Source: Candidatus Omnitrophota bacterium (GTDB lineage: Bacteria > Omnitrophota > Gorgyraeia > Gygaellales > Profunditerraquicolaceae). From it: a stretch of DNA of 64,000 bases. Each line of letters starts with the position of its first letter. Positions within the stretch are counted from its first letter, which is position 1. The stretch is from contig JBAZTA010000004.1 of assembly GCA_041662125.1 (NCBI GenBank), forward strand, positions 343 through 64,342, written 5' to 3'. The position numbers and the translations under genes are program-made. Of the stretch, positions 6,799 to 26,471 are shown one piece after another. The notes beneath the pieces were generated by a model that ran no database searches, was not told the DNA's origin, and worked only from the letters and a program-made list of their open reading frames with translations.

Positions 6799-6852
6799 GT
6801 ATTCTCCTTCTCACTGATAGCCACTTCTATCCATACTACAGCAGGCATACTG

Positions 6853-11526: not shown

Positions 11527-11530
11527 TGCG

Positions 11531-12103: not shown

Positions 12104-12455
12104 TCTTTTGCTCCTCTAAATTTTTAACATAGTGATCGATATACTCCTTTCCGGAAGACGGAAAGATTTTTGTAAACATGACCCCCATGCCCGCCGCCTC
12201 TGAGCCACCCGCGGGCCTGCTCCACTGCACTATCCCTTCCGCATGAATGATCTTCTTTTCTTTGCCGCCTTCATCAAACTCAAACATGACCTCGATCTTG
12301 GCATTAGCCGGCTCTACCTTATCGGTTGAAACAAACATCCCTCCCGCGGAAATATCGCGGGTTTCGACATACTGCCAAAAACTTTTTCCTCTGACCTCTA
12401 CTCGTAGCTTAACAAACGCCCGCTTATATTGCCTTTTTTCGTCAAAAGCCCCCAT
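12096..12455 (-). CDS. Standalone PilZ-domain protein
   Basis: RQYKRAFVKL (RxxxR) and DISAGGMFV (DxSxxG) motifs. Confidence 0.75.
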   Translation of the reverse strand: MGAFDEKRQYKRAFVKLRVEVRGKSFWQYVETRDISAGGMFVSTDKVEPANAKIEVMFEFDEGGKEKKIIHAEGIVQWSRPAGGSEAAGMGVMFTKIFPSSGKEYIDHYVKNLEEQKNA

Positions 12456-12528
12456 CGTTTCTCCTGGTTATTGTATACGTTTCCCCAACCCCGTCCTTGC
12501 GCGCTTTAAAAAACTAAAACAATCTTAA

Positions 12529-13380
12529 TCATGACCCTTGAGGCGCCCTCGGCAATTGCACCACAAACGTTGTCCCTGCTCCAACAGTACTCTCCACCTT
12601 CACATCGCCGCCATGATGCTTAACAATATTATAGCTGACTGACAACCCAAGCCCCGTGCTTTTTTTGGTCGAGAAGAACGGATCGAAGATCTTCGGCAAG
12701 ACATCTTTTGCGATGCCAGTTCCGGTATCAATTACTTTAACATATACATTCCTGGCATCTTCATAGGTGCTCATCGTGATCGTCCCTTTATCAACGATAG
12801 CCTGGCTGGCATTAATCAACAGATTAAGGAAAACTTGAGACAATTGCGTCGTATCTGCCAATATCTTGGATTTTGCCTGATAGTCTTTTATGACCGTCAC
12901 CTTATACTTTATCTCATTCCAGACGATCGCAAGCACCGACTCCAGGACATGATTAATCTCAACCGCAGCATTCTGCGTCTCGCTTCTGCGGGAGAAAGTA
13001 CGCAGGTCAGAGACGATTTTCTTGATACGTACCGCCCCGTCAAGCGACTCCTGGTTCATCGCCTTCATGTCTTCGATCAATACCTTATTTTCTTTTTCCG
13101 TTAAAGAAATCTTTCCCTCGATCTGCTGGGTATAATCTTTAAGGCTTTGCAGGTTGCTGATTAGAAAACCGAGCGGATTATTGATCTCATGCGCGATACC
13201 CGCAGCCAACGTTCCCAAGGAAGCCATCTTTTCCATATGCACGATCTGAGCTTCGGCATCTTTTACAAGCTTTGTTTTCTCATCGACTTTTTTCTTCCAA
13301 AAGCTGTTCATGACAACGGTATATACCACGCAGGCAATAACGCTGATCGCGATCACTATGAGCATTCCCCCGATATTCAT
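12529..13380 (-). CDS. Sensor histidine kinase (TM anchor + DHp + HATPase_c, no sensor domain)
   Basis: N-terminal TM helix. H-box HEINNPLGF. N, G1 and G2 boxes (LLINASQA, IDTGTGIAKD, GLGLSVS). Confidence 0.85.
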   Translation of the reverse strand: MNIGGMLIVIAISVIACVVYTVVMNSFWKKKVDEKTKLVKDAEAQIVHMEKMASLGTLAAGIAHEINNPLGFLISNLQSLKDYTQQIEGKISLTEKENKVLIEDMKAMNQESLDGAVRIKKIVSDLRTFSRRSETQNAAVEINHVLESVLAIVWNEIKYKVTVIKDYQAKSKILADTTQLSQVFLNLLINASQAIVDKGTITMSTYEDARNVYVKVIDTGTGIAKDVLPKIFDPFFSTKKSTGLGLSVSYNIVKHHGGDVKVESTVGAGTTFVVQLPRAPQGS

Positions 13381-13457
13381 CTGCTTAACCCGCCCCTTCC
13401 CTATCCCGGCAGCAGGATATCTTCACCCGGCCGGGTCTCTTGTATGGTATCTATTCC

Positions 13458-14696
13458 CTAGTTCCCTTTAATAACGCGGATCATATTCCACAACGGCAGG
13501 AATATTGCCAACGCCATCCCGATAACCACCATTCCCAAGACCGCGGTCATCACCGGCTCGATCATCGTCGTTAGGTTTTTTATCGCATTCTTTACTTCCA
13601 AAGTAAAATATTCACACAATGAATCAAGCATGAGCGGCAACGCACCGCTCTTTTCTCCCACGGAGATCATGTAACCGACCAGGCGGGGGAAAAATTTACT
13701 GTTCAATACCGCTCCGGAAATACCCTTTCCGTCGGCAACATCGCGTTTAATAGCTTCGATCTCTTTTGCCAAAACAACATTGCCCAGCGTCATTCCGACG
13801 ATATCGATCGTATTGAGCACCGGCAAGCCCGCCTGATACAAAACACTTAACATCGAGGCAAAACGCAACATCGTTATTTTCGTATATACCTTTCCATAAA
13901 TATAGATCTTAAATTTTAAGCCATCCCAAAGGAACCTGCCTGAAGCGGTATTAATATACCACTTCACGAAAACAACTAATCCGATTATCGCCGGGAAGAG
14001 GATATACCAATAATACCGCAAGGTATCGCTGATAACGATCATCACCTGTGTCGGCAGGGGAAGATCGACTTTTGCTGCTTTATAGATCTGGGCGAACTGC
14101 GGAATAACAAAGATCGAAAGCACACAGACCGCGATTACCAGCGAGATCACGACCATTAACGGGTAACGCAGCGCTGCTTTGATATTCGTCTGGGTCTCTA
14201 AATCTTCTTCCAGCATATGCGCCAGGCGCAGCAAAACCTTTTCTAAAACGCCCGCGCTTTCCCCGGCGATCACCGTATTCACGTACAAGTCGGAAAAAAC
14301 ACCCGGGTGCTTCGCCATAGCCTGAGATAAACTTGATCCCCCTTCCACATCGCGCACCACCTGATGCAGGGCGTCTTTGAGCACGGGATCCTCGCATTGT
14401 TCCCCTAAAGCGGTTAACCCTTCCAGGATAGGAACCGCGGCTTTTATGATTGTGGCGAACTGCCGCGAGAAAATAACCAGCGACTCTATTTTTACTTTTT
14501 TTGACTGAGCAAAAAGCCCCCCAGACGAAACCCTTGATTTGGAGATCGAAGCATCTTTGGCTTTAACGCTGACATTGACCGGAATATACCCCATCTTCGC
14601 CAGCTTCGTCGTCAACTCCACTTCAGTTGAAGCGTCCATTTCGCCTTTAACAAGTTTTCCGTCTGAATCGACTGCCCGATATGCGTACGTTGACAT
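13458..14696 (-). CDS. pilC: Type IV pilus / T2SS inner-membrane platform protein PilC/GspF
   Basis: About 400 aa with duplicated T2SSF domains and three TM segments. Conserved motifs: FSRQFATIIKAAVPIL..L and GEKSGALPLMLDSL. Confidence 0.9.
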   Translation of the reverse strand: MSTYAYRAVDSDGKLVKGEMDASTEVELTTKLAKMGYIPVNVSVKAKDASISKSRVSSGGLFAQSKKVKIESLVIFSRQFATIIKAAVPILEGLTALGEQCEDPVLKDALHQVVRDVEGGSSLSQAMAKHPGVFSDLYVNTVIAGESAGVLEKVLLRLAHMLEEDLETQTNIKAALRYPLMVVISLVIAVCVLSIFVIPQFAQIYKAAKVDLPLPTQVMIVISDTLRYYWYILFPAIIGLVVFVKWYINTASGRFLWDGLKFKIYIYGKVYTKITMLRFASMLSVLYQAGLPVLNTIDIVGMTLGNVVLAKEIEAIKRDVADGKGISGAVLNSKFFPRLVGYMISVGEKSGALPLMLDSLCEYFTLEVKNAIKNLTTMIEPVMTAVLGMVVIGMALAIFLPLWNMIRVIKGN

Positions 14697-14722
14697 ATTT
14701 TACGATGCCTTTTTAGCCTGCT

Positions 14723-16387
14723 TTACAACTGCTCCGAGGAAACCCTTGAGATTTCTTCAATAGTAGTTACCCCTAACAAGACTTTCGATAACCCGTCTTC
14801 GCTTAAAAGTTTCATGCCGTTTTCCTGCCCTTTTTTACGCAAAGCAAGCGCGGATGCCTGCTGCACGATCATCTCTCTCATTTCATCACTGATCACCAAC
14901 AATTCAAAGATGCCGGCCCGGCCGCGGTAACCAGTGCCTTTACAACTGTCGCATCCTTTCCCGTGATATAATGTCACGTTCGAGGCGTTCGTCAAGCCCC
15001 ATTTTTCTAAGATAACTTTTGACGGCTGATACGGCTCTTTACAATTCTCGCAGATCTTCCTGACAAGCCGCTGCGCCATGACGCCGATTAAACAAGCGGA
15101 AATGAGAAACGGTTCAACTCCCATATTGACGAGCCGGGTCACTGCGGAAGGAGCATCATTGGTATGAAGCGTCGAGAACACTAAATGGCCGGTCAACGCT
15201 GCCTGGACAGCAATAACGGCAGTTTCTAAATCCCTGATTTCCCCCACCATAATCACGTCAGGATCCTGACGCAGTATAGCGCGCAAGCCATTGGCGAAAG
15301 TGATGCCGGCTTTTGCGTTAACCTGGATCTGCCGGATAAGCCCTAAACGATATTCCACAGGGTCTTCAATCGTAATAATGTGCCGGTCGATCGTATTGAT
15401 CGTGGTGAGCGCGGAATAGAGCGTGGTCGTCTTACCGCTTCCCGTCGGACCGGTTGAAAGGATGATGCCGTATGGCTTGGAGATCAAGCCCCGGTAACGA
15501 TCCAGGTCTGTCTGTGTCGCAAAACCCAACCGTTCCAGGCCGATCCTGACTGAAGCGGTATCCAAAAGCCTCATAACCAGGTTCTCTCCGTAAATAGTCG
15601 GAATAGTCGAAACACGGAAATCAATGATCTTTTCATCTACCTTAACCTGGAAATGGCCGTCCTGCGGGACCCTGCTTTCAGCAATATCCATCCCCGCTAA
15701 CACCTTCAAACGGGAAAGGATCGCCGGTTCCCATTCTTTGGGAGGAGAAGGGATCTCGTGCATAATACCATCGATACGGAAGCGTATGCGGGTCATATCC
15801 TGTTCGGGCTCAATGTGAATATCTGAGGCCCGGTCATGGACTGCCTGAGCAATAACCAAATCTACCAACTTAATAATTGAGGTGCCTTCCGAACGTGACT
15901 CTTTGGAAGGGGCAGACTCTTTGGTATTTAACCCCTCAAGCAAGTTTTTAGTAATCTTGCGCTCAACATATAAACGCTGCTGCGCGTCTGCGATATCCTG
16001 AGTGCCGGCATAATAAACTTCAATAGGCATCCCGGTATGCATCTGTATCTGGTCAATGGCGTATAAATCATTCGGGTCAGCCATGGCAACGCGCAGCGTA
16101 TTATTATCGATCTTAACCGGAATTGACTGTGTCTGGCGGGCTAACCCTTCCGGCACGGTTTTAATGAGCTCCTCGTCAAACTCGATATTTTCCAGGCTCA
16201 CATACTTAAAACCCAGCGATCGGGCGATAGTTTCATGCAAGAGAGGGCGGGAAACAATATTCATATCAACCAGGACTTTATCCAGCGGCCGCTTTAACAT
16301 TTTCATTTCCTGGCTTGCCCTGTCTATGTCCGCCTGATTAACCAATCCCGAGCTTAACAATAATCCTTCCAGATCTTTATCATTCAT
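14723..16387 (-). CDS. pilB: PilB/GspE-family assembly ATPase (second copy)
   Basis: N-terminal GSPII_E-N domain. Walker A GPTGSGKTTTLYSAL. C-terminal CxxC...CxxC (CENC...CDSC). Confidence 0.9.
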   Translation of the reverse strand: MNDKDLEGLLLSSGLVNQADIDRASQEMKMLKRPLDKVLVDMNIVSRPLLHETIARSLGFKYVSLENIEFDEELIKTVPEGLARQTQSIPVKIDNNTLRVAMADPNDLYAIDQIQMHTGMPIEVYYAGTQDIADAQQRLYVERKITKNLLEGLNTKESAPSKESRSEGTSIIKLVDLVIAQAVHDRASDIHIEPEQDMTRIRFRIDGIMHEIPSPPKEWEPAILSRLKVLAGMDIAESRVPQDGHFQVKVDEKIIDFRVSTIPTIYGENLVMRLLDTASVRIGLERLGFATQTDLDRYRGLISKPYGIILSTGPTGSGKTTTLYSALTTINTIDRHIITIEDPVEYRLGLIRQIQVNAKAGITFANGLRAILRQDPDVIMVGEIRDLETAVIAVQAALTGHLVFSTLHTNDAPSAVTRLVNMGVEPFLISACLIGVMAQRLVRKICENCKEPYQPSKVILEKWGLTNASNVTLYHGKGCDSCKGTGYRGRAGIFELLVISDEMREMIVQQASALALRKKGQENGMKLLSEDGLSKVLLGVTTIEEISRVSSEQL

Positions 16388-16388
16388 C

Positions 16389-17033
16389 TTAATCCCTGAT
16401 AGTCAACAATCTTCCAACCCACGCCTTTACTGCGTTGGCATCATCTGCTTCAGGCGCGCATTTGAGATACTTCTGATAATACTCAACCGCCTTTTTATTA
16501 TCTTTCAATTGTTCTTCATAGATAACACCCAGGTTATAGCAGGCATCAGCCTGATTCTGATTCAATGCCAGCGATTTCAAAAACATTTTTACTGCCTGGT
16601 TGAATTGCTTGGTTTTCAAATACTCGATCGCCAGGTTATAATATAAATCACTGCTCTGCGGCTCGATCTCAATGGCGCGCAGATAGAGCGGGATAGCGTC
16701 TTTTGATTGCTCTTTCTGGGACAAAAGCCATGCCCTGCGGGCTGAGGACACAGTAGGTTCATCGGCTGCCGGTGAGGCTTGCGCCGGCGGCGCTGTGCGG
16801 GGAGGTATTCCCCCCAGGAGATCCTGCGCTTTTTTTAATTCTTCGTCAGCAAGGGCATAATTTCCTTCCTGCATATATTTTTCCCCCGCAGAATAATACT
16901 CTTTTGCTTTCTTGATCTTATCAGTGGGAGAAAAAGAAGCCGCCTGGTATTCCTGGGCAGCGGCAAACACAGAAACGAACAAAACCCCTATCAGCATTCC
17001 CAGCGGAACTATACACGCGCGATCTTTTTTCAC
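16389..17033 (-). CDS. TPR-repeat protein with signal peptide, PilF/PilW-like secretin pilotin candidate
   Basis: Signal peptide followed by TPR repeats (AQEYQ...YYNLAIEYLKTKQFNQAVKMF...YNLGVIYEEQ). Sits between pilQ and pilB. Confidence 0.6.
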   Translation of the reverse strand: MKKDRACIVPLGMLIGVLFVSVFAAAQEYQAASFSPTDKIKKAKEYYSAGEKYMQEGNYALADEELKKAQDLLGGIPPRTAPPAQASPAADEPTVSSARRAWLLSQKEQSKDAIPLYLRAIEIEPQSSDLYYNLAIEYLKTKQFNQAVKMFLKSLALNQNQADACYNLGVIYEEQLKDNKKAVEYYQKYLKCAPEADDANAVKAWVGRLLTIRD

Positions 17034-17036
17034 CTG

Positions 17037-18377
17037 CTATTCTCCACGATTTTTAGGCAGCAATTCAACATCGACTTTCTTTCCTGCAGCCGCTGCCGGA
17101 TCCGCAGTATCAGAAGAAAAAGATGGATCAGCCAGTTTGAACATAGCGCTGACCTGCTGGAATTTATTTTGTAATTCGTTTAATTTCGCCTTAGTCTGGT
17201 TTAAATCATTGGCCAGGGTTTCCCGCTCTATTTGGACAGAAACATTCTGTTCCCGCAGCAGCGTGGATTCTTTTTTCATCTCTTTATATTTTGAGTAGAC
17301 CTCAAATGTCTTGGCGTCTGCTTCTTCCAGCCGCTGCTTTATAAAAGCCATCTCTTCTTTGCGGCGAGACAGCTCAGCCTCATTCTGCTTCATGGCTAAC
17401 TGTTCAGTCGCATGTACATCACTCAGATCGGAATAATCTTTGCGCAATTTCTCCAGCTGCGACTTAAACGAATTCATCTCTTTTACCAGGTCTTGATTTT
17501 TCTTATTCAAAAGCGCTAAACTCATCTTTTGTTTCTCGGTACGCTGCGCATACTCCTGTTTTTCCTGTATCAGCTTTGCCTCTCGAGCTTGAGCATCTTT
17601 TAATTCCCTGTCCAGCTTTTCCATAACCGGTTTTAAATCAGGCCCGCCGAGGGAAAGTTCTTGTAATGTTTTCTCCAAATCAAGCGCCTTCTGCGCTAAC
17701 AATGCTTTTTCATTTGCCACGCTGAGCAGCTGCCCTGAAACAGAATTCAAGCTGCTCTGTAACGCTTCTTTCTGGGACTGCGCTTCTGCGAACTGTTTCT
17801 TAAACGCCTGCAATTCTTCTTCCTTGTGCGCCAGGCTTTCACGTAACCGCTCTGTTTGTTCTTTATATATTGCTACCTGGTTCAACAACGAAGGGATCTG
17901 CGAATTAACCGAATCAAGTTCTTTCCCTAAATTTTCTAATTGAGCGATAAATTCATTCCCCTTATCCGGCTGGAGTTTCAACTCCGTCAAAATACGCTCT
18001 AATTGAGAAATCTTTTCTTTTACCGGTAGCGAAATATCAGCGCTGCCTTTGAGCTTCGCCAATTCTTTCTCCAGGCCCTCCTTTTGCTGAACTGCATCTT
18101 TCAACTGTCCCTGCAGGTCAATGACCTTTGATTTTACATCGAGAGCCTTTGCTTTTTCTTCGTTAAACGACTGATGCAGGGTAAGATTAAACTTACCGAA
18201 GCCATTGACCACTTCCCGTAATTGCCGCACCTGAGATTCCAGCATTGAAACGGAAATCCCGTCCTTATCCACGCCGCTTGCCGGCCGGGCTTTTTTAGAA
18301 AGCTTGACCGCTTGGAAAAGCACAAAAGAAAGCAGCATGACTACGATAAAAAGGATGAAGAGTTTTTTATCCGTCAT
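17037..18377 (-). CDS. Membrane-anchored long coiled-coil protein (446 aa), unknown T4P accessory
   Basis: N-terminal TM (LFILFIVVMLLSFVLF). The remainder is heptad-rich, Q/E/K/L-rich coiled coil. Confidence 0.5.
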   Translation of the reverse strand: MTDKKLFILFIVVMLLSFVLFQAVKLSKKARPASGVDKDGISVSMLESQVRQLREVVNGFGKFNLTLHQSFNEEKAKALDVKSKVIDLQGQLKDAVQQKEGLEKELAKLKGSADISLPVKEKISQLERILTELKLQPDKGNEFIAQLENLGKELDSVNSQIPSLLNQVAIYKEQTERLRESLAHKEEELQAFKKQFAEAQSQKEALQSSLNSVSGQLLSVANEKALLAQKALDLEKTLQELSLGGPDLKPVMEKLDRELKDAQAREAKLIQEKQEYAQRTEKQKMSLALLNKKNQDLVKEMNSFKSQLEKLRKDYSDLSDVHATEQLAMKQNEAELSRRKEEMAFIKQRLEEADAKTFEVYSKYKEMKKESTLLREQNVSVQIERETLANDLNQTKAKLNELQNKFQQVSAMFKLADPSFSSDTADPAAAAGKKVDVELLPKNRGE

Positions 18378-19789
18378 TTAACCTCTCTCATTTTAAGCTT
18401 CACCGGCCGGGGCAACTCAGTAACCATATTGCTCTCGCTGGCGATCAACGGTAAATCATTGTCTTTAATAATATGCGCAGTAACAAATATCAACAAGTCA
18501 GTCTTCTCAGTCGGGTTTTCAGTCGAACCGACTTCTTTCCGCTTAAAGAGAGCCCCCAAGAAAGGGATGTCTCCCAAGAAAGGGATTTTTTTCTCAGTCG
18601 TCGCTGCTTCATCCTTTACCATTCCGCCGATGACAACCGTTTGGCCGTCTCTAATCTGGACTTCTGTCTGCGCGGAGCGCGAAGATGTGATCGGGCCTTC
18701 TTTTACCCCATCGCGCTCAGAGGCGTATCCAACGAGGCTGCTCACTTCAGGTTTGAGCTTTAATTTAATATGCCCGTCAGGGCTGACCTGAGGGGTCACA
18801 TCCAGTTTAACCCCGACATTATAATTGGTCCAACCGGTGATCTCTAAATTCCCGGTAGTATCATTACGCTCATACGTCGGCAATGACAACACCTTCCCGA
18901 CATTGATCACGGCATTCTGATTATTGATGGTGACAATACGGGGGTTCGCGACAAGTCTCGTTTTATTGCGTGATTTCAAGAAATCAAGGATGGCCTGGAA
19001 AGCGGAAAAATCAAGGGTCCCAAAGGTAAAATCGCCCAAAACGGTATAGGGGAACCCCGTAGGATTAGCCGCATTAAAAGCAGCATCCGTTGCAGCTGCA
19101 CTAGGCAAATAATTTTGTACGAGCTCATTGCCGCCTTTGGGGCTGAAAGGAAACGTTATTGCCCGTTTTGCGCCGGTAGCCTTAATGGTCGTCGTCCAAT
19201 CGATCCCTAATTTATCGTTGACCGTAAGCGATGTCTCGATCATCTTGGCTTCGATCAAAACCTGAGAAGTCAATTCATCGAGGGATGGGACCATAGCTTC
19301 GATCTTATTAATTACGGAGAGCGAATCAGTAACAATGATCGAATTGGAACGGCTGTCGGCTTCGATTGAGCCGTCTGAAGAAAGAACTTTGGCGAGAGTA
19401 ACCTTGAGGATGGCGGCATCGGCATTATTGAGTTTAAAAAGTTTTGTCTGATTACCCTGTTTGACAACTTCATCCTGTGTCGTCACTTTATAGACATTAT
19501 CTTTCTTGGAGTAAGCAAAGCCATTAACGGTAACAATGGAATCCAGCGCTTGCTCAATACTGACATTGTTCAATTGCACGGTAACCAGTCCCTTGACCGT
19601 TTCCGAGAAAATAATATTCAGGTTATATTGTTTAGCCAGCTGGCGCAAAACATCCTTAATATCAACCTCGCGGAATTCCAGCGTTTCAATCATCTGCTGT
19701 TCTTGAGCAGCAAGGAAGCCGGCCCAAGACAAAAACAGCCCCAACAAGATAACAACACATAATTTCAGCCTGACCCGATTCTTACTCAT
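18374..19789 (-). CDS. pilQ: Type IV pilus secretin PilQ (N0 + N1 + secretin domain in one polypeptide)
   Basis: Signal peptide. N0 block VDIKDVLRQLAKQYNLNIIFSETVKGLVTVQL. N1 block SNSIIVTDSLSVINKIEAMVPSLDELTSQVLIEAKMIE. Secretin signature IPFLGDIPFLGALFKRK...DLLIFVTAHII. Confidence 0.9.
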   Translation of the reverse strand: MSKNRVRLKLCVVILLGLFLSWAGFLAAQEQQMIETLEFREVDIKDVLRQLAKQYNLNIIFSETVKGLVTVQLNNVSIEQALDSIVTVNGFAYSKKDNVYKVTTQDEVVKQGNQTKLFKLNNADAAILKVTLAKVLSSDGSIEADSRSNSIIVTDSLSVINKIEAMVPSLDELTSQVLIEAKMIETSLTVNDKLGIDWTTTIKATGAKRAITFPFSPKGGNELVQNYLPSAAATDAAFNAANPTGFPYTVLGDFTFGTLDFSAFQAILDFLKSRNKTRLVANPRIVTINNQNAVINVGKVLSLPTYERNDTTGNLEITGWTNYNVGVKLDVTPQVSPDGHIKLKLKPEVSSLVGYASERDGVKEGPITSSRSAQTEVQIRDGQTVVIGGMVKDEAATTEKKIPFLGDIPFLGALFKRKEVGSTENPTEKTDLLIFVTAHIIKDNDLPLIASESNMVTELPRPVKLKMREVK

Positions 19790-19884
19790 TATGAATGCCT
19801 CTTGGATAACACCTGATTTTTTCCTGATAAAAAATTATACCACACTCCCAGCAATAGTTTGACTATTTTTATACACGCCAAAGC

Positions 19885-20355
19885 TCATTGGTTTTGTTCC
19901 CCGGGAAACGTCAAATAAAAACTCTGGCTTTCTTTTTTAAGCAACACCTTTGCTTTCTGAACTTCAACGACTTCATAACCGCCTACCGCGTCGCCTTGCT
20001 TCACGATCTCATTATTAATAAAAGCGTAACCTGCCCTGCCTTTTCCGAAAGAGATGCCCTGGAGTTTAAGTTCATCCATTTTAAATTCTTTATCAAACAG
20101 GGCAATAAAAGGGTCGCGTCCCCAGCTAAGCTTGCCTCGCTCCAGCTGCTGGATACGCATAGTATCGCCGGCAGCCGGCGTTGCGGCAGACATCGATGGA
20201 GACAATACTGCCACCGGAGGGGCCAGCGACACGGTTGTTTGCGTCTCGGGGATCGGCGCTTTAGAAGGCTTCTTCTTTAAATTCCCCAACGTAACAAAGG
20301 CTAAAACGACGATAAGACAACCTGTTAAGATAAATTGTTTTATTTGTTTAGACAT
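19885..20355 (-). CDS. pilP: PilP-like pilus assembly protein
   Basis: N-terminal TM/lipoprotein-like segment. C-terminal beta-domain LQGISFGKGRAGYAFINNEIVKQGDAVGGYEVVEVQKAKVLL is typical of PilP and the GspC HR domain. Confidence 0.65.
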   Translation of the reverse strand: MSKQIKQFILTGCLIVVLAFVTLGNLKKKPSKAPIPETQTTVSLAPPVAVLSPSMSAATPAAGDTMRIQQLERGKLSWGRDPFIALFDKEFKMDELKLQGISFGKGRAGYAFINNEIVKQGDAVGGYEVVEVQKAKVLLKKESQSFYLTFPGEQNQ

Positions 20356-20375
20356 ACGTATTTAAAGATTAACCG

Positions 20376-20993
20376 CTATATTTCTAAAACCATGTACGTG
20401 CTCAAAAGCAGCGTTGCCACCAGGTCCCGAGTCTTTGCCGGCTCTTTTTCTTTTAACGCAGTCTGCACAACAACAGAAATATCCTTAACTGCCTTTTTAT
20501 CAATGGTTATCGACTCCACGATAAAAGCTACCTGCAATTTCCCGAGATTCGCTAAATATTCCCCCAATTCCTGGTAAGAACAATTGAGCACTACCTCAAT
20601 ATACACTTTATTGACACCGGGAGGAAGGTTTTCACTCGATGACCGTATATCATCGCGCGGCCGTATCGAAGATACCGACATATTATACTGGCTTATCGAG
20701 TAACCTAACAACGTGACCAGCCGCGGGACCTGTTTTTTATTAATTTCAGCGTCTTTAAATTCCTCCGCCTTCTTAGCAATATCTTCCATGGCTTTTTTGG
20801 GGTCAGGCAGCGCGCGGATAAGCGCCTCTGATTCCTGAAGCTTAAACTGTTGTTCGCTGAATTCAGTTTTAAGCTTATTCGCCGCCTTTGCCAATGCCCC
20901 CCCTAAAAATATCTGGATAAGGGCCAAAATAACGGCAGAAACAATAAAAATAAGCGCTATATCCTTAAGAGTGTTCCCGATTTTCTTCGCCAT
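20376..20993 (-). CDS. pilO: PilO-like bitopic inner-membrane protein
   Basis: N-terminal TM (IALIFIVSAVILALIQIFLGG), then a coiled coil, then a C-terminal ferredoxin-like region. Lies between pilMN and pilP. Confidence 0.6.
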   Translation of the reverse strand: MAKKIGNTLKDIALIFIVSAVILALIQIFLGGALAKAANKLKTEFSEQQFKLQESEALIRALPDPKKAMEDIAKKAEEFKDAEINKKQVPRLVTLLGYSISQYNMSVSSIRPRDDIRSSSENLPPGVNKVYIEVVLNCSYQELGEYLANLGKLQVAFIVESITIDKKAVKDISVVVQTALKEKEPAKTRDLVATLLLSTYMVLEI

Positions 20994-21004
20994 GATACTT
21001 TTTG

Positions 21005-22798
21005 CTAATATTCCAATTTACAGGTTATTTCGAACGTTGCCGCAGGGATTGAAGAATATTTATCCGGCTCGCTGGCAACTAAAACAACATCCTTAAAAAA
21101 AGGTGATTCCTCCAGCACCATCTGATACTGCGATAATGCCAGATCCACGATAGTATACTGAGAAACGATCCTGCCGCGCAAACGTATTTCTTTCGGTTCT
21201 TTTGCCGCTTCGGTACTGACCATCGAGAGCACGACATTCTTCGGCGTAATATTGCTAAGCTCTTTAAAAACCCCCCACCAAAGGGGCTGTTTTCCTATGG
21301 CTTTTTCCAAAAGGTCTTTGCGCTGATCTAAGCGTGTTTTCATATCTAAATACCCTCTTACCTGAGCAACCGTCGGTTCCAGGCGCAAAATTTCCTCCTG
21401 GGTCGCCTGAATAAGGCTTTTATACCTGACGTTATTAAGGTAGCTAAACCCGTGCATTACTAAAAATAAAAGCAAGGTTACCGGGAAGAAGAGTCTAAGC
21501 AACAACCGTAAAAAGAGTGTTTTTTGCTCTAACTTTTCAGTATTCGGCAAAAGATTTATTTTCCCGCCGCTGCCTAAACAAAGGCCAAAGGCTACCGCCA
21601 AATGTGGCGCAGCCTGTTCCATTACAAAATCCTGTTTTAAAACTCCTTTTTCGGTCCACCCCTTGATCGTCTTAAGCACATTAAGCCGTTCCACCTTCTT
21701 TAACCGTTCAAGATTATACAAAAAAAACTTATCAAGATTCTTCAAACGGGAGCTGCCGCCGGTAATATACAACTCCTCGATATTTTCGGCTTTAAACGTC
21801 TTGGCGTAATAACTGACGGTACGAGTGATCTCCATGATCAGCCGCTCCAGGGTCGGCCGAAACATCGTCGATATCTGTTCGCCCAGTAAAGCCCCGTAAT
21901 CCGTCAAGAACTCAGTCCGGGACTCGTCTTCCAGAGGAATACCGCAATTACGCTTGATCTTCTCGGCGTCATCAAAGCTTAATTCAATGGTCTGGCTCCC
22001 GGAATCTATTGGTTTTGCCATTGCCCGGGTCAAGTGGTCGCCGCCGACAGGGATATCGCGCATAAATACCAGGTCCCTGCCTTTATAAAAATTGAGCGTT
22101 GTATTATTAGCGCCCACATCAAGCAGCATAACGGTCTTATTCGCGGGTGCCTCGACACAAAAAGACACCAGGTTACCGAGCGCGTCAGGGATAATATTGA
22201 TCGCCACCGGACGGATATTGATATCTTTGAGGAACTGCATCTGCTCATCGAGAGCCAAGCGGTCAACCGCAATACAGGTTACCTGCAGGTTCGGCCCCTT
22301 ATCGTCCTGCCCGCGGCCGGTAATAAAAAAATCAAAAGACACGTTGTTGATATCGACCTGAAAAGGCATCCGTTTCTTCAATTCCAGGCCGATCAACCCG
22401 CGTAAATCTTTTTTATTGATCACCGGGACGCTCAGAGAAAAGACAAATATCCCTTTCCCGGAAATGGCAAGGCGGGCAAAGCGTGTTTTAATGGGGCTCT
22501 CAGCGATAAATTTCTTAATAATATCCTGAATGAGTTTTTTCTTGGCAAGAGCATCTTCCCTGATATCCAAAGGGATGCTGCGGATAACACAATCTGTTAT
22601 CAGGTATCCTTTGCTTATCTTCTGCAGCTGCAAAACCTTGATATGGCTTGAGCCAATGTCAATCCCGATAACATGCTGCCCGGAAGCAATAAAATTCTGG
22701 AAAGACGCAGCAAACACAGTCCAGAAATCATGAGATGACGATTTCGGCTTTGCCGGTTTCACAGCGCCCTGATTTCCCTTCGGTTTCTGATCGCTCAT
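21005..22798 (-). CDS. pilMN: Fused PilM (actin-like ATPase fold) - PilN protein
   Basis: N-terminal PilM block (VIGIDIGSSHIKVLQL...LDVGANNTTL...ITGGSS). After residue ~400, a TM helix (LFLRLLLRLFFPVTLLLFLVM) and a PilN-like periplasmic domain. Confidence 0.75.
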   Translation of the reverse strand: MSDQKPKGNQGAVKPAKPKSSSHDFWTVFAASFQNFIASGQHVIGIDIGSSHIKVLQLQKISKGYLITDCVIRSIPLDIREDALAKKKLIQDIIKKFIAESPIKTRFARLAISGKGIFVFSLSVPVINKKDLRGLIGLELKKRMPFQVDINNVSFDFFITGRGQDDKGPNLQVTCIAVDRLALDEQMQFLKDINIRPVAINIIPDALGNLVSFCVEAPANKTVMLLDVGANNTTLNFYKGRDLVFMRDIPVGGDHLTRAMAKPIDSGSQTIELSFDDAEKIKRNCGIPLEDESRTEFLTDYGALLGEQISTMFRPTLERLIMEITRTVSYYAKTFKAENIEELYITGGSSRLKNLDKFFLYNLERLKKVERLNVLKTIKGWTEKGVLKQDFVMEQAAPHLAVAFGLCLGSGGKINLLPNTEKLEQKTLFLRLLLRLFFPVTLLLFLVMHGFSYLNNVRYKSLIQATQEEILRLEPTVAQVRGYLDMKTRLDQRKDLLEKAIGKQPLWWGVFKELSNITPKNVVLSMVSTEAAKEPKEIRLRGRIVSQYTIVDLALSQYQMVLEESPFFKDVVLVASEPDKYSSIPAATFEITCKLEY

Positions 22799-23055
22799 CT
22801 TCTGGTAGCCCTCACCTTTACAATCTCTAACTCTTTAAGTATCTTTTCCTGATTACTGACTACCACCGCTAATTGAACAAGGATTTTTTTGTCAGCCTCG
22901 CTCGTATTTGCTAATACCTGATCTAGTTTTGCTTCCATCTTGGCAAGTTCATCGCCGCCTGCCGGCTCAACGGGACGCTGGGCGCGTAAAGTTGCATGTA
23001 CACAAAAACAAACCAGAGCTATTATCCCTATACCTACAGCTATTTTCTTTCCCAT
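22795..23055 (-). CDS. Small secreted or bitopic protein (86 aa), unknown
   Basis: N-terminal hydrophobic segment (IAVGIGIIALVCFCVHA). Translationally coupled between the PilX-like gene and pilMN. Confidence 0.4.
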   Translation of the reverse strand: MGKKIAVGIGIIALVCFCVHATLRAQRPVEPAGGDELAKMEAKLDQVLANTSEADKKILVQLAVVVSNQEKILKELEIVKVRATRR

Positions 23056-23067
23056 ACCAACACCTCC

Positions 23068-24573
23068 CTACTGTTCCTGCCAGGTAATAGAATCAAAGGC
23101 TCCGATAAAACCGTTATCTTTGACAAACCTGGTCGAATACCGTATCCTCACCCGCCCGTCTAAATAAACATCATTGCCCATCACAGACCTTCCATCAATA
23201 TAGTTAAGGTATATCGTGCCGTTCTGCGTATAAATAAGCCCGTCGAAATTCCGGGCATCTCTCCTTTGTGTCTCATTATTGTCTGACGGAGTTTCATAAG
23301 AAAGTATATTTCCATATTGTGTTGCCAGGTTCGGATAGGTCAGGCGAATAACCCTGCGGGAACGCCTCCCGCGGGGAACCCTTTGGCGCGAAGCGACCAT
23401 AGAGATTGCATCTTCCCCTTTAATAACAATATCTCTTTCCGCGACGAGGCTGGTGCCGTTAAAGGTGAGATTATCGTCTCTTACATCAAGAAGTAAATCT
23501 CCCGTGACATACCAGAGATTTTCATTGTCATAATCATGGTTGGGATTACTATGGTTTGAGTCATAGTAAAACCGCCTGGTTAAAGCCACATCTTCGTTGG
23601 CCAGCCAACGGTCAGCAGGCCGGGAATTAAAGTTAATGCTTGCGTCAAATTCCAAGGTAACTGTATTATTACTGATCCGGTTTACAATTACTCCCCAGTT
23701 TCTATAGCCCCATTTATTGGCAAGAATAAGATCTTCCCGCTTATTACGCAGCACCACCTCCTGAGTCCACGATGAACCTGACGGCCCGGGAGGGGGAGTA
23801 GTAAAAACATCGCTCTTTAACCGCACCTGCAACTGCCGGGCAGAAACCACGCTCACGCTATCAATAACCGCATCTAACTGCAAAGCGGTAGGAGCCCAGA
23901 CGCGGCTGCCCGCCTGGTCGCGAAAATACTGCATATCAATCCCCTGGTAACCGGTATCTGTGGGCACCCTATCCCGCAAACCGCTTGAAACATCCGGGAC
24001 ATTCAAATCGGCGGTTTCATTATGGGTAGAATTATTGTTTCCTTCATAGCCGTCTGTCGTATCAGCCGGACGGTCTACAACAACAATATCCCCGTCTATA
24101 GAAGAGTTGTTATGCCAATCTGACCAGTCAAAAAGATGTTTGATCGCACTTGCTTCATTGATTGTTCCCGCGGAAACGCTTAATTTCAATTGCCGCATTG
24201 CCAAGTATGAAGTTTCAGTGGGGACATAGCCTCTGACTTCTATGATCGCATCGCCTGCTTCCCCTGTTTGCGGGTTGCGGCAGCAGACGGTATACTCACC
24301 GGGGCTCAAAAAATATTTCGGCCGCTCACCCGTATCATTACAGTCACGGTCATTATTAAGGTCGGTCCGCCAGGTTGCATCATTCATATAGCGCACCAGC
24401 GCCCATTGGCCGCCTGACTCTGCGAGATTCAGCGCGCGTTCAGATTCCAATAAACGGGATGAAGCGTCAAAATCAGTCGAGATCATCGATGACAAAGACC
24501 ACCCCAGGAGCGCAAACATAAGCATGGCAAAAATTACAATGACCAAACTCATCCCTTTTTTATTCACCGACAT
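23068..24573 (-). CDS. Large PilX-N-domain minor pilin / putative tip protein (501 aa)
   Basis: N-terminus KKGMSLVIVIFAMLMFALLGWSLSS...ALNLAESGGQWAL matches the PilX_N pattern. A large beta-rich C-terminal region follows. Confidence 0.6.
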   Translation of the reverse strand: MSVNKKGMSLVIVIFAMLMFALLGWSLSSMISTDFDASSRLLESERALNLAESGGQWALVRYMNDATWRTDLNNDRDCNDTGERPKYFLSPGEYTVCCRNPQTGEAGDAIIEVRGYVPTETSYLAMRQLKLSVSAGTINEASAIKHLFDWSDWHNNSSIDGDIVVVDRPADTTDGYEGNNNSTHNETADLNVPDVSSGLRDRVPTDTGYQGIDMQYFRDQAGSRVWAPTALQLDAVIDSVSVVSARQLQVRLKSDVFTTPPPGPSGSSWTQEVVLRNKREDLILANKWGYRNWGVIVNRISNNTVTLEFDASINFNSRPADRWLANEDVALTRRFYYDSNHSNPNHDYDNENLWYVTGDLLLDVRDDNLTFNGTSLVAERDIVIKGEDAISMVASRQRVPRGRRSRRVIRLTYPNLATQYGNILSYETPSDNNETQRRDARNFDGLIYTQNGTIYLNYIDGRSVMGNDVYLDGRVRIRYSTRFVKDNGFIGAFDSITWQEQ

Positions 24574-24608
24574 CTTTGCCTCTTTTGTAAAAAGAAATAT
24601 TTCCTATC

Positions 24609-25148
24609 CTAAAGGTTTCTAAAAAATATCTGCGCTGTCACGGTCTTATCTAAAGTCCTATCGGAACCACTTGAAACAAAAACCATGGCGATCTTGATAC
24701 GATAAATATCAGACTCTTGCGGATTAAGCAAGGGCGAAGCAATCGGCGCATTATTTGCGTTATAGTAGGTAAACGTCACCGCGCTGAGGCCGCTTACCAA
24801 AACATTCTCGATAGTATTGCTGCCCCGGATCAAAGCATTACCTGAAAATCGATAACGGATCATCGTATCGCTGACATCCATAAAGCGGAATTCCGACGAG
24901 CCTGCCGTATAAACCGATAAGGCATCTTTGATCTGCCGCATCTCCCGGGACATACGCATCAATGCCATCCGCCCCTGGCTGACCGATTCACTGCGAAAAG
25001 AAATAAAGCGCCATAAATCAATTACTCCTTTGACATATAGCGATGAAGTTGCAGTTAAAACACCGACGATCACCATGACCGTTACCAACTCTATCAACGT
25101 GACTGCTTTTTTACGCTGCACACAGACAGATATATCACGGGTAATCAT
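24609..25148 (-). CDS. Pseudopilin / minor pilin
   Basis: Prepilin-type N-terminus QRKKAVTLIELVTVMVIVGVLTA. Confidence 0.65.
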   Translation of the reverse strand: MITRDISVCVQRKKAVTLIELVTVMVIVGVLTATSSLYVKGVIDLWRFISFRSESVSQGRMALMRMSREMRQIKDALSVYTAGSSEFRFMDVSDTMIRYRFSGNALIRGSNTIENVLVSGLSAVTFTYYNANNAPIASPLLNPQESDIYRIKIAMVFVSSGSDRTLDKTVTAQIFFRNL

Positions 25149-25163
25149 TACGTGCTATCCCCT

Positions 25164-25706
25164 CTAATAAGCGCCGACAATAGTTGTTAAACTTATATCG
25201 CTTGCTAAATTATTGCTCCGGGAAACGTTCACCTGAATACGTTTATAACAGCACTGAGAGCAACTATTGCAATCCGTCTGCTCTACACACGAAGAAACCG
25301 CACCACAAGCTCCCCAGGCATTCCCGCTCAAATTCACATAATCGATCGCGATTGTGCGCGTGTACCCCAAAGCAGGTGTGGTAACCAAAGAGTCAGTGCA
25401 CCCGACAAAATCATCAACATCATTAAAAGTATCTTTATCATTCCTGTTTTCCCCGCTCTCCGCGCCAAAAGAAGCGCTGGGAGTCCAGGGAGAAGTATCA
25501 TTATTATCAAAGCTTTTTGACTTGACCTCTTCCATTAATTGCTGCGCGTAAAACGCCGCGTCCGCTAAAGATTCTGAACGGACTGACCGCCACGAAACAT
25601 CAGACCACATCGTCATTAATACCGGCACGCTAAAACCCAAGACCACGATTATGACGATCAACTCAATTAACGACATACCCTTATTATTCATTGCACCCTC
25701 ACCCAT
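25164..25706 (-). CDS. Pseudopilin / minor pilin (GspI/PilV-like)
   Basis: MNNKG|MSLIELIVIIVVLGFSVPVL: leader ending in G, Glu at +5. Confidence 0.7.
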   Translation of the reverse strand: MGEGAMNNKGMSLIELIVIIVVLGFSVPVLMTMWSDVSWRSVRSESLADAAFYAQQLMEEVKSKSFDNNDTSPWTPSASFGAESGENRNDKDTFNDVDDFVGCTDSLVTTPALGYTRTIAIDYVNLSGNAWGACGAVSSCVEQTDCNSCSQCCYKRIQVNVSRSNNLASDISLTTIVGAY

Positions 25707-26341
25707 CCGGTATTTGGCGAAACATAAACGCTCAAATCCTCGTTACGGCAGCTAAACCTGACCTGTCCGTCGGCAGCTAACGGATTGCCCGTGGCGTCTT
25801 GAGGGACACCCTGCCAATCAAAACAGAGGATATTAGAACTCCCAAAACTTGCCGTTGTAATGCTTATTCCTTTAAACTGCGGGTCATTGACAAAATCAAC
25901 CCTGAAATTATTACGGCCAAAAGGAGACAGGGCGAAACTATTATCTAATTTCTGGACATCATATCGATTCGTCGGATTATTATAGAATGTTATCTTGTAA
26001 GTCTGGTGGCGGGAAACAGCAAGCTGCTGCACATAGCGGATATCTGAAACTGTTTTTTGTACTGCGCTGGCGAGTTTCATGGAATAAAAACTATCAATGC
26101 GGGGAATTGCAAGGCCCACCATGATCCCGATAATAGCCATCACCATGATCAGCTCAACCAGGCTCATACCCCGGCCCAAGATCTGTTCCATCTTGCGAAG
26201 GTCATCTTCCGAATATTCCCGCCACTGATTGATACGATTTCTCCGCGGTGTTGGAAAAATTCCTTTCTTTTCATAGCGAACCAGAGTTTGCTTAGAGAGC
26301 CTTAATTTCTCCGCAATCTCTGAAGCGCGAAAAATGCGCAT
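25688..26341 (-). CDS. Excisionase-type HTH domain fused in-frame to a prepilin leader + GspH/FimT-like pseudopilin
   Basis: Residues 1-50: EIAEKLRLSKQTLVRYEKKGIFPTPRRNRINQWREYSEDDL (HTH, paralog of 10315-10506). Residues 51-58: MEQILGRG, a leader-like segment ending in G. Then MSLVELIMVMAIIGIMVGLAIP, the mature pseudopilin N-terminus with Glu at +5. No stop codon between the two modules. AGGAG RBS 7 nt upstream of ATG 26341. Confidence 0.7.
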   Translation of the reverse strand: MRIFRASEIAEKLRLSKQTLVRYEKKGIFPTPRRNRINQWREYSEDDLRKMEQILGRGMSLVELIMVMAIIGIMVGLAIPRIDSFYSMKLASAVQKTVSDIRYVQQLAVSRHQTYKITFYNNPTNRYDVQKLDNSFALSPFGRNNFRVDFVNDPQFKGISITTASFGSSNILCFDWQGVPQDATGNPLAADGQVRFSCRNEDLSVYVSPNTGWVRVQ

Positions 26342-26471
26342 CTAAAAGCTCCTGATATGGTTTAATACTATTTGTCATAATTTTATTATATTATAGGAAA
26401 TTGTCAAGATAAATATCATTTAAACACTTAAGATATATTGGGTTAAATAGAATATAACGGGTATTGGTTAA
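26342..26471 (-). promoter_or_regulatory. Sigma70-type promoter of the T4P operon
   Basis: Minus strand: cTTGACAa (complement of 26399-26406), a 16-bp spacer, TAAAAT, then AGGAGcttttagATG. Confidence 0.5.

Follow-up and report, generated by a model that had tools for sequence, protein, structure and literature searches.

A MerR-like winged helix in the leader position of a minor pilin from Omnitrophota: a candidate transcriptional regulator that prepilin peptidase may release

The first gene of a T4P operon in a Candidatus Omnitrophota bacterium encodes, in a single uninterrupted reading frame of 217 aa with an ATG start (25688..26341, minus strand; positions are those of the window, the whole 64-kb stretch of DNA that was analysed), a MerR-like winged helix, a prepilin cleavage motif and a FimU/GspH-like minor pilin. 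A preliminary description of this DNA had reported an HTH, a prepilin leader site and a pseudopilin in one ORF, and both the architecture and the 217-aa frame were confirmed. By prediction, a protease site separates the cytoplasmic DNA-binding domain of the fusion from its transmembrane segment, and the sequence suggests that the peptidase maturing the pilin probably also frees a regulator of the pilus genes. We consider it slightly better than an even chance that the product is a polyprotein, from which prepilin peptidase would yield a BldC-like autoregulator and a mature minor pilin, tying regulator supply to pilin insertion and processing; here we infer the cleavage, the DNA binding and the sign of the regulation.

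The full-length architecture was found in 44 protein clusters (43-92% identity), and the fusion lies in one frame in 9 GTDB species representatives. All of these homologues and representatives sit at the head of the same pilus operon. Purifying selection at the codon level extends through the HTH-pilin junction. Half of the invariant alignment columns of the fusion family (15/30) fall within residues 13-41 of the HTH, which is the best-conserved part of the protein (dN/dS 0.025-0.030, vs 0.051-0.078 for the pilin). The frameshift or sequencing error considered beforehand was not seen: the same in-frame junction recurs across independent assemblies (JGI, ENA, NCBI, Logan), and an assembly or sequencing artefact, whether a frameshift or a chimera of two genes, is refuted by this conservation and deserves practically no weight. 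The architecture and the conservation of the fusion are real.

In a second, independent fusion, P0077, known from a single 1.3-kb contig, the DNA-binding part is an unrelated HTH_17 domain scoring 62 bits, and a homologous pilin follows it at the same junction (RRDKG↓LTLIE; the arrow marks the predicted cut). No relatives with its architecture were found, and its HTH resembles those of HTH_17-PTS-EIIA proteins. A word-index search for an HTH joined to any pilin N-terminus returned only solo regulators and ordinary pilins, a weak negative because the index failed to recover most known fusions. Long N-terminal extensions of other pilins (P0056, P0064, P0069, P0158, P0174 and others) gave no domain match and are probably mis-called starts.

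The N-terminal domain (residues 1-58; 26168..26341, minus strand) corresponds to the predicted released fragment, which ends in ...ILGRG and carries a net charge of +7. It matched MerR_1 (PF13411; 35.7 bits, cut-off 21.6) and MerR (PF00376; 29.2 bits, cut-off 28.2), with a weaker match to HTH_17. Of the earlier excisionase/MerR-type assignment, the MerR-type part was therefore upheld by the profiles, whereas HTH_17 stayed below its cut-off. Modelled alone with AF2, residues 1-58 formed a beta-alpha-alpha-beta-beta-alpha winged helix (pLDDT 92.6) in which helix 3 comprises residues 45-54 and a 4-residue linker follows, residues 55-58 being coil. The segment MEQILGRG (51-58), previously read as a separate leader, is instead the end of helix 3 plus this linker, and therefore the whole 58-residue domain occupies the leader position. 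Structural analogues of the domain are the AlpA and Xis excisionases, RdfS and BldC, all of them small winged-helix proteins that stand alone and, as monomers, bind to direct repeats. The coiled-coil dimerisation helix and effector region of MerR are absent; after helix 3 comes the pilin transmembrane helix. The HTH also had a weak PDB match, 5v0m (E about 0.3), entitled 'type IV pilin protein'; it was discarded as spurious, since the aligned segment is the soluble helix from a pilin in truncated form.

A typical prepilin leader is a short hydrophilic peptide of 5-30 residues without a fold, and in this operon the leaders of the neighbouring pilins run to 5-15 residues. The leader of the fusion is 58 residues long and folded, and is thus not of the short, unstructured, hydrophilic kind. 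We know of no demonstration that a prepilin with a folded domain as its leader is cleaved.

The remainder of the protein, the predicted mature minor pilin (residues 59-217; 25691..26167, minus strand), starts with the hydrophobic helix alpha1N (~26167-26102) and continues into a FimU/EpsH-like globular domain. The AF2 model of the fusion (pLDDT 85.8) showed the lollipop fold of pilins, a long N-terminal helix with a beta-sheet head. Foldseek searches with residues ~59-217 gave FimU and EpsH structures as the best matches (E 3e-5 to 1e-3; 4ipu E=3e-5, 2qv8 TM 0.73, also 4dq9 and 9a1f_Q). PF12019 was not matched in this protein and does match several homologues and pilin-only relatives. Close pilin-only orthologues, matched by the pilin HMM at E 1e-60 to 1e-71, carry leaders of the usual short kind (for example MKNKG↓FTLIE), and therefore the pilin half is probably a bona fide peptidase substrate. 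By its modelled fold and its place at the head of the minor-pilin set, the segment from residue 59 to 217 appears to be a FimU/GspH-type minor pilin. Like FimU and GspH (EpsH, XcpU), the family has the canonical G↓FTLIE N-terminus and comes first in its minor-pilin set, ahead of two further pilins and a PilX-like protein. Unlike the known members, whose leaders are short and unstructured, it carries a folded DNA-binding domain of 58 residues, and the 217-aa protein scored only 28.2 bits against the GspH equivalog TIGR01708 (cut-off 80).

The predicted prepilin peptidase site (26153..26173, minus strand) reads R57-G58↓M59-S60-L61-V62-E63 and places the cut between codons 26170-26168 and 26167-26165; we infer cleavage here from TIGR02532 and from the statistics of the family. 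Residues 57-79 scored 22.6 bits against TIGR02532 (prepilin cleavage/methylation; cut-off 16.3); Pfam N_methyl fell just under its cut-off in this protein (18.8 vs 21.2) and is precomputed as present in many homologues. Across 34 aligned members, position -1 is Gly in 33 and Ala in one, -2 is Arg or Lys in 29, +1 is Phe in 26, +2 is Thr in 32 and +5 is Glu in all 34, which bears out the canonical mature pseudopilin N-terminus with Glu at +5 that had been read from this sequence. In one sub-clade the linker is 3 residues longer (IIGRSSAG↓L, IIGRGNSG↓F) and the Gly at -1 is still kept. Prepilin leaders end in Gly or Ala, are cytoplasmic and are cut at the cytoplasmic face (PMC10191384). The topology argument of the preliminary description is sound, in that the predicted cut after Gly58 would leave a ~58-aa HTH polypeptide in the cytoplasm. 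No prepilin peptidase gene was found within the 64-kb window; homologues adjoin the operon headed by the solo HTH (see below) in the related loci L021 and L034.

The ribosome-binding site of the fusion ORF, AGGAG at 26353-26349, is 7 nt 5' of its ATG, and the same motif precedes codon 1 in 10/10 fusion loci. The in-frame ATG codons at 51 and 59 and the TTG at 55 in this genome would allow the pilin to be made mainly from Met51 or Met59, with the full-length fusion a minor or incidental product after recent loss of a stop codon. We rate this explanation very unlikely. A Shine-Dalgarno sequence precedes codon 51 in 0/10 loci; position 51, which belongs to the hydrophobic core of helix 3, is occupied by Leu or Phe in 7/34 members, and position 59 is Phe in 26/34. 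At locus L009 the sole in-frame start in the 30 codons before the junction is the TTG at codon 55, which has no Shine-Dalgarno sequence. The fusion is also old, to judge from its 43-92% identity and its monophyly. The alternative start at Met51 that had been suggested is thus not conserved, and an internal start at Met51 or Met59 was rejected as a conserved mechanism.

In the AF2 model of the full-length protein, helix 3 and the pilin helix are drawn as one continuous helix across Gly58, with a pLDDT of about 70-77 there, and only about 4 linker residues precede the membrane. If real, such an uninterrupted helix could hinder access of the peptidase. The fusion might then be an uncleaved, membrane-tethered bitopic regulator of the ToxR/CadC kind, the HTH acting from the membrane or being held inactive at it and the pilin domain acting outside the cytoplasm as a sensor or as a partner of the pilus machinery; one-component regulators tethered to the membrane form an established class. 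We consider this unlikely. The Gly or Ala at -1, the basic residue at -2, the Phe/Thr/Leu at +1 to +3 and the invariant Glu at +5 are conserved even where linker length differs, and their importance is for cleavage and the assembly of filaments, not for simple anchoring. The nearest pilin orthologues are prepilins of the ordinary kind, the solo relatives stop at the junction, and with practically no linker the HTH would need DNA to be brought to the membrane surface.

Solo versions of the HTH include a free-standing paralogue in the same window (10315..10506, minus strand; 63 aa, ending in ...IIRGSIE), which is 58% identical to fusion residues 3-55, scores 45.5 bits against PF13411 and, with support from synteny, heads a T2SS-like filament operon. 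The loci examined contain about 40 ORFs for solo HTHs, and the protein database about 75 clusters of 59-81 aa. Several of these proteins stop exactly at the predicted cut, ending in ...ILGRG (L021, L036) or ...ILGRI. The fused HTHs make up a single clade that branches from within the solo HTHs, and their invariant residues (S16, Q18, T19, R22, Y23, E24, K25, R34, N38, W40, R41) are also conserved in the solo proteins. As far as can be judged from sequence, then, the HTH domain works on its own as a stand-alone protein. Regulators of about 60 aa heading filament operons are a widespread family in Omnitrophota, a phylum without a genetic system.

Upstream of the fusion gene lies a sigma-70-type promoter (26380..26407, minus strand) with the -35 box TTGACA at 26407-26402, a 16-nt spacer and the -10 box TAAAAT at 26385-26380 (11/12 matches), conserved in orthologous loci; the fusion gene is indeed first in the T4P operon and directly behind a strong promoter, as had been proposed. 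Starting 3 nt past the -10 box, a putative operator (26348..26377, minus strand) comprises three 10-bp-phased direct-repeat units, TGACAAATAG, TATTAAACCA and TATCAGGAGC, the last of which overlaps the AGGAG. The promoter and putative operator of the solo gene (10570..10630, minus strand) are paralogous to these, with a -35 box at 10630-10625, a 17-nt spacer, the -10 box TAAAGT at 10607-10602 and units at 10599-10570 (CATCAAATAG, TATCAGGTAT, GGTTAGGTAA). The preliminary description had pointed to TTGACAA at 26399 and 10626 as a possible target of the released fragment. The relation between the two promoters stood, but TTGACAA itself is merely the -35 hexamer and was dismissed as a binding site; the specific element common to the fused and solo promoters is CAAATAGTAT, that is, the TATYAR repeats.

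The pair TATYAR-N4-TATYAR occurred 30 times in 2 x 1.03 Mb, and 24 of the 30 occurrences fell in the 200 nt that precede HTH genes, regions that make up 0.43% of the sequence searched. Repeat spacings are almost exclusively 10, 20, 30 or 40 bp; promoters of HTH genes carry 2-5 direct repeats with 10-bp spacing, those of the fusion genes having two strict TATYAR units and one degenerate unit. The position of the array is fixed relative to the -35 and -10 boxes and not to the start codon. Pilin-only orthologues have a different promoter without the TATYAR array. Operator-like sites elsewhere in the window, such as 29671, 50116 and 30544-30559, the last of them within coding sequence, showed no conservation as arrays. 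The array downstream of the -10 box is thus likely to be the operator of the HTH proteins, which defines a candidate operator for the ~60-aa regulators of Omnitrophota. The classic MerR mechanism, with a palindrome in a 19-20-bp spacer, was rejected: the spacers measure 16-17 nt, and the conserved repeats, which lie downstream of the -10 box, are in direct orientation.

One point against the polyprotein reading is that the genome already encodes a solo regulator besides the fused copy; another is that this solo protein could by itself be what binds the fusion-promoter array. As the recognition helices of the two are almost identical, the prepilin might be cleaved and the winged helix not be a transcription factor here, but a bulky leader that gates or delays the processing and incorporation of the FimU-like pilin, or a protein-binding module (cf. 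CbpM, DafA), that is afterwards degraded while the operator is served by the solo protein. This we hold to be quite unlikely, since the invariant residues of the fused HTH are the same as those conserved in the solo proteins, a dN/dS of 0.03 is hard to square with a mere spacer, and the fusion gene retains the operator array found with every HTH gene.

For the polyprotein we propose the following course of events. Translation would initiate at Met1 behind the conserved AGGAG, and the hydrophobic helix from residue 59 to about 80 would act as a signal anchor, leaving the positively charged winged helix in the cytoplasm and the FimU-like domain outside. A PilD-type peptidase would cut after Gly58 at the cytoplasmic face and yield two products: a normal mature minor pilin, which would enter the pilus-priming complex, and a free 58-aa protein ending in ...ILGRG, co-linear and co-terminal with free-standing Omnitrophota regulators of 59-64 aa. 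The released domain, like the solo paralogue, would bind the TATYAR repeats at 26377-26348 and 10599-10570 as head-to-tail monomers. It would most probably repress both operons, because the repeats lie immediately downstream of the -10 boxes. How much active regulator the fusion gene supplies would depend on whether the minor pilin is inserted into the membrane and processed, and the pilus operon would thereby come under negative feedback that is delayed and stoichiometric. In a more far-reaching form, put forward tentatively and at somewhat less than even probability, the leader would be a BldC-like repressor active only after pilin insertion and processing, and prepilin peptidase the releasing protease of a transcription factor; the cell would therefore meter transcription of the pilus operon and of a second filament/secretion operon by the flux of pilin maturation. 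As to its origin, the fusion likely arose from a duplicated solo regulator gene that, with its promoter and operator, became joined in frame to a downstream fimU-like gene, and we propose that it was tolerated because the peptidase regenerates both products.

BldC of Streptomyces, a MerR-like protein of 68 aa, binds variable numbers of direct repeats as monomers arranged head to tail (PMC5859096). Like BldC, the solo protein (63 aa) and the predicted fragment (58 aa) are MerR-type winged helices without a coiled coil or effector domain; BldC differs in that it is not known to form part of a membrane protein and in its repeat unit, which is AATT-N4-C instead of TATYAR. A PDB sequence search with the HTH returned no BldC chain at E<=1. 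Excisionases, AlpA and RdfS (HTH_17 superfamily) are likewise small winged-helix proteins that oligomerise on direct repeats, and the P0077 fusion uses an HTH_17 domain; they act, however, in site-specific recombination of mobile elements, whereas here there is no integrase context and the genes head pilus or secretion operons.

Proteolytically released factors are known from pro-sigma-K/SpoIVFB, pro-sigma-E/SpoIIGA, the RIP cascades acting on anti-sigma factors and Notch/presenilin; the GXGD-type aspartyl membrane proteases include presenilins as well as prepilin peptidases. In these systems, as predicted here, a regulator lies within a membrane-associated precursor and is freed by a membrane-embedded protease. 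There, cleavage is a regulated signal and the remainder is discarded or is a receptor, whereas in the fusion the protease would be a housekeeping maturase and the other half a structural product. In Pseudomonas aeruginosa, how much pilin the inner membrane contains feeds back on transcription of the pilus genes through PilA-PilS and through minor pilins-FimS/AlgR (PMC5979040). As proposed for the fusion, the minor-pilin operon is itself a regulated target, but in P. aeruginosa a histidine kinase contacts the membrane pilins, and here the proposed signal is a regulator encoded in the prepilin.

Prepilin leaders are usually viewed as short and disposable, and prepilin peptidase as an enzyme of maturation and nothing more. 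That a conserved and strongly selected DNA-binding domain takes the place of the leader implies that a leader can be a second gene product, and that the processing of pilins can have a direct link to transcription. It also offers a simple model of how type IV filament operons may sense their own subunit supply, for which only two-component inventory control in Pseudomonas has been available so far. In the full-text literature outside subscription-only journals, we found no report of an HTH-prepilin fusion, of a factor released by prepilin peptidase, of Omnitrophota pili with MerR or of a folded, functional prepilin leader. If true, the more far-reaching form of the model would make this the first leader of any prepilin to have its own function, and would add a bacterial parallel to the release of transcription factors by GXGD proteases in Notch/presenilin. 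Should the peptidase tolerate a folded leader, this would be useful for engineering cleavable membrane-tethered regulators.

Both operons that carry the array lie on the minus strand. Behind the fusion gene, the T4P operon (10693..25691) continues with two short-leader minor pilins, the first of which (25164..25691) starts by an ATGA overlap at 25691 (MNNKG↓MSLIE), and then with a PilX-like protein, a PilM-PilN fusion, PilO, a PilP-like protein and PilQ. These are followed by a coiled-coil protein, a TPR protein, PilB and PilC, and at the end by a histidine kinase, a PilZ protein, a response regulator and an MshEN-PilZ protein. The T2SS-like operon headed by the solo HTH (2..10322) encodes a T2SSB-like lipoprotein, a DUF6782 metallopeptidase, a split secretin (317 aa + 422 aa), a 1065-aa protein without known function, a T2SSE ATPase and a T2SSG-like pseudopilin that runs past the window edge.

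The ORF at 25688-26341 (-) encodes a protein of 217 aa, whose ATG start is preceded by AGGAG 7 nt upstream. Residues 1-58, which carry a net charge of +7, scored above the Pfam gathering thresholds for MerR_1 (35.7 versus 21.6) and MerR (29.2 versus 28.2), with a sub-threshold Pfam score for HTH_17, and residues 57-79 matched the prepilin cleavage/methylation model TIGR02532 (22.6, cut-off 16.3). The helix-turn-helix (HTH) domain that the preliminary description had placed at the N-terminus and the prepilin start behind it, the latter with Glu at +5 in all 34 members, were thus both recovered. A full-length AlphaFold2 model built on a 34-sequence alignment (pLDDT 85.8) consisted of a strand, two helices, a beta-hairpin wing, a single long helix (45-111) and a beta-sheet head. 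By structure, the head and helix matched FimU, a minor pilin, and two pseudopilins, EpsH and XcpH; the pilin half is structurally a FimU/GspH-type minor pilin and would function as one, though with sequence scores below the equivalog cut-off. In the model, helix 3 runs unbroken into the pilin helix across Gly58, at lower confidence there (pLDDT ~70-77), and residues 55-58 are coil when the HTH domain is modelled in isolation, placing the predicted cleavage site four residues from the folded domain. What had been taken for a separate leader, MEQILGRG (51-58), actually consists of the last residues of helix 3 and a linker of four residues, and the leader position is therefore taken by the entire HTH domain.

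The fusion is real and conserved. Among 5.8 billion proteins searched, 44 clusters shared 43-92% identity with the fusion protein, each of them full length and with precomputed MerR and N_methyl domains; public annotation of the fusion proteins reads 'MerR family transcriptional regulator' or 'prepilin-type cleavage/methylation domain protein'. Scanning one genome per GTDB species, we detected the in-frame fusion in 9 representatives, all Omnitrophota MAGs, a few of them deposited under other names. Such fusions in related genomes had been proposed as a check, and their conserved reading frame excludes a sequencing error or frameshift that splits the gene. The HTH was the best-conserved region of the alignment, residues 13-41 holding half of the invariant columns, and dN/dS against the two closest orthologues was lower in codons 1-58 (0.025-0.030) than in the pilin part (0.051-0.078). 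At the junction, position -1 was Gly in 33 members and Ala in 1 (of 34), -2 was Arg or Lys in 29, +1 Phe in 26 and +2 Thr in 32. A sub-clade with a linker three residues longer (IIGRSSAG/LT..., IIGRGNSG/FT..., the slash marking the predicted cut) retains Gly at -1. Independent initiation at Met51 had been offered as an alternative. Because 7/34 members have Leu or Phe at position 51, position 59 is mostly Phe, and AGGAG precedes codon 1 in 10/10 fusion loci, with a ribosome-binding site before codon 51 absent from all ten, we rejected internal initiation at codon 51 or 59 as a conserved feature.

A tblastn search of the window with the fusion protein revealed a second, HTH-only copy (10491-10333, 58% identity), within a solo ORF of 63 aa at 10315-10506 (-) (MDQEIIYTAKEAAEKLGISKQTLFRYERKGIFPKPKRNSINHWRQYSQQNLNELSKIIRGSIE; MerR_1 45.5 bits), whose recognition helix is near-identical to that of the fused HTH. 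About 40 solo ORFs of 58-66 aa were present in the loci fetched from related genomes, and the protein database held ~75 solo clusters of 59-81 aa. In four loci the solo gene is tandemly duplicated (L019 2211-2668, L021 6543-6942, L029 2866-3241, L038 7974-8344), the copies abutting or overlapping by a few bases. The fusion and a solo gene coexist in at least four genomes, on one contig (L001/L040, L003/L033, L005/L052) or within one MAG (L002/L045). By neighbour joining, the fused HTHs fell into one clade nested among the solos. Solo C-termini (...ILGRG, ...ILGRI, ...IIRGSIE) line up with the fusion junction ...ILGRG/FTLIE, so that a cut after Gly58 would restore a protein of natural size and end.

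The solo gene heads a second operon of conserved order in at least 25 Omnitrophota loci. Behind it come genes for a T2SSB-like lipoprotein, in many cases a DUF6782 peptidase, a secretin in two parts, the ATPase T2SSE and a pseudopilin of T2SSG-like type; in a few loci (L056, L058) it heads other filament operons. In the window this T2SS-like operon (2-10322 (-)) encodes the T2SSB-like lipoprotein, a DUF6782 metallopeptidase, a secretin divided between two proteins (an N-domain protein of 317 aa and a secretin protein of 422 aa), a 1065-aa protein that gave no Pfam match, the T2SSE ATPase and the T2SSG-like pseudopilin.

The fusion gene was described as the first of the T4P operon, directly behind its promoter, and this was confirmed by a near-consensus promoter (-35 TTGACA 26407-26402, 16 nt, -10 TAAAAT 26385-26380, (-)) and by the pilus genes downstream. 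These encode two minor pilins whose leaders are of the usual kind (the gene for the first begins at an ATGA overlap, MNNKG/MSLIE), a PilX-like protein, PilM-PilN, PilO, a PilP-like protein and PilQ, and later PilB, PilC, a histidine kinase, PilZ proteins and a response regulator, an order common to 9/9 other fusion loci. PilM-PilN is a single fused 597-aa protein (21005-22798 (-); PilM_2 45-408, PilN 510-595). The signalling genes at the operon end (10693-13380 (-)) are those for the histidine kinase (12529-13380 (-)), a PilZ protein (12096-12455 (-)), a receiver-only response regulator (11531-12103 (-)) and an MshEN-PilZ protein (10693-11526 (-)). Since MshEN and PilZ are both c-di-GMP-binding domains, this suggests second-messenger control of the operon in addition to the HTH.

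Relatives of the pilin half in a 50%-identity representative library were mostly ordinary prepilins. In the closest, L010 and L013-L016 (E 1e-60 to 1e-71 with the pilin HMM), the leader is short, as in MKNKG/FTLIE, and from this sequence comparison we conclude that the pilin half is a peptidase substrate of the usual kind, to which the HTH has been added. Two FimU-like orthologues (L011 7968-8594, L012 7824-8477) carry a conserved 41-residue leader, MN[IT]QR[VI]KKKN..G[LF]TP[VT]PFIYLNSFR...KKVRG/, which no longer matches the HTH model and may be a decayed fusion remnant that lost helices 1-2. A prepilin peptidase gene was absent from the 64-kb window; homologues ~31% identical to Firmicute PilD/ComC were found in other loci, 1.3-1.5 kb upstream of the solo-HTH operon (L021 4286-5095, L034 5869-6672). 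In one further relative, P0077, known from a single 1255-bp metagenome contig (L081 513-1157, inside a minor-pilin gene set), an HTH_17 domain (62 bits) unrelated to the fused HTH is fused at the equivalent position (RRDKG/LTLIE) to a homologous pilin. The nearest matches of this excisionase-type HTH are spirochaete HTH_17-PTS-EIIA proteins; its independent fusion suggests, from this one contig, that the HTH-pilin arrangement can arise repeatedly.

Both HTH genes of the window have a common promoter architecture, and an exact 10-mer, CAAATAGTAT, occurs in both promoters and nowhere else in the 64 kb. Over 39 non-redundant upstream regions, the top 7-mers were the -35 CTTGACA (56-fold enriched) and ATAGTAT, CAAATAG and TATCAGG (25-50-fold). 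Alignment anchored on the -35 showed 2-5 direct TATYAR repeats beginning a few bases past the -10, with unit-to-unit distances of 10 bp (24 times), 20 (10), 30 (4) and 40 (2) and almost no others. The units lie at 26377-26348 (-) for the fusion gene, the last overlapping the ribosome-binding site, and at 10599-10570 (-) for the solo gene. TATYAR-N4-TATYAR occurred 30 times in 1.03 Mb (both strands), 24 of them no more than 200 nt ahead of an HTH gene (0.43% of the searched space), and the arrays, seen in the window and upstream of HTH genes in L001-L061, are almost exclusive to mini-MerR gene promoters. The only other exact match in the window, TATCAGGAGATATCAA at 30544-30559 (-) inside a GTPase-like gene (30294-32270), is probably due to chance; L001 has a similar site, located elsewhere. 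The position of the array is fixed relative to the promoter and not to the start codon, which argues for action at the DNA rather than the RNA level. In pilin-only orthologues the promoter is another one (CTTGATATTTA...TATAAT) and the array is missing. The array thus accompanies the HTH coding sequence, as an autoregulatory operator would, and is a candidate operator of a head-to-tail binding regulator. Two solo lineages with altered recognition helices (L056 and L061, with SKSTIL and SKETIK instead of SKQTL) have TATAG-type units, not TATCAA, two cases that hint at protein-operator covariation.

The leader of a prepilin stays in the cytoplasm on membrane insertion and is cut off by the peptidase after Gly/Ala at the cytoplasmic face (PMC10191384), and BldC, a 68-aa MerR-like monomer, binds head-to-tail to variable numbers of direct repeats (PMC5859096). 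Combined with the anatomy of the fusion gene, these properties make a polyprotein of BldC-like regulator and FimU-like minor pilin its best-supported reading. The peptidase would separate residues 1-58 from the pilin, and the released regulator, together with the solo paralogue, would sit on the phased repeats that lie over the start of transcription in each of the two operons, a location that makes repression of both the most likely outcome. The fused copy would mature only after membrane insertion and processing. The simplest origin would be duplication of a solo gene and in-frame fusion of the copy, promoter and operator included, to the gene that follows, a fusion tolerated because the peptidase would regenerate both products. 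Release of the HTH by pilin processing, the central idea of the preliminary description, is strengthened by the solo paralogue and the shared operator and is the best-supported explanation.

A full-text literature search found no description of this architecture or of Omnitrophota pili with MerR. The fusion HTH has the fold of MerR regulators but lacks the dimerisation/effector region and the palindromic operator in a long spacer; with these two defining features missing, it should not be classed as a canonical MerR regulator, and its mode of action would be that of BldC or of small winged helices of the excisionase type. Pro-sigma-K, pro-sigma-E and Notch/presenilin are proteolytically released transcription factors, which the whole fusion resembles by analogy. 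A similar functional analogy can be drawn with pilin inventory control by PilS and FimS (PMC5979040). Unlike in all of these, the protease of the fusion would be the housekeeping prepilin peptidase, and both halves would be products.
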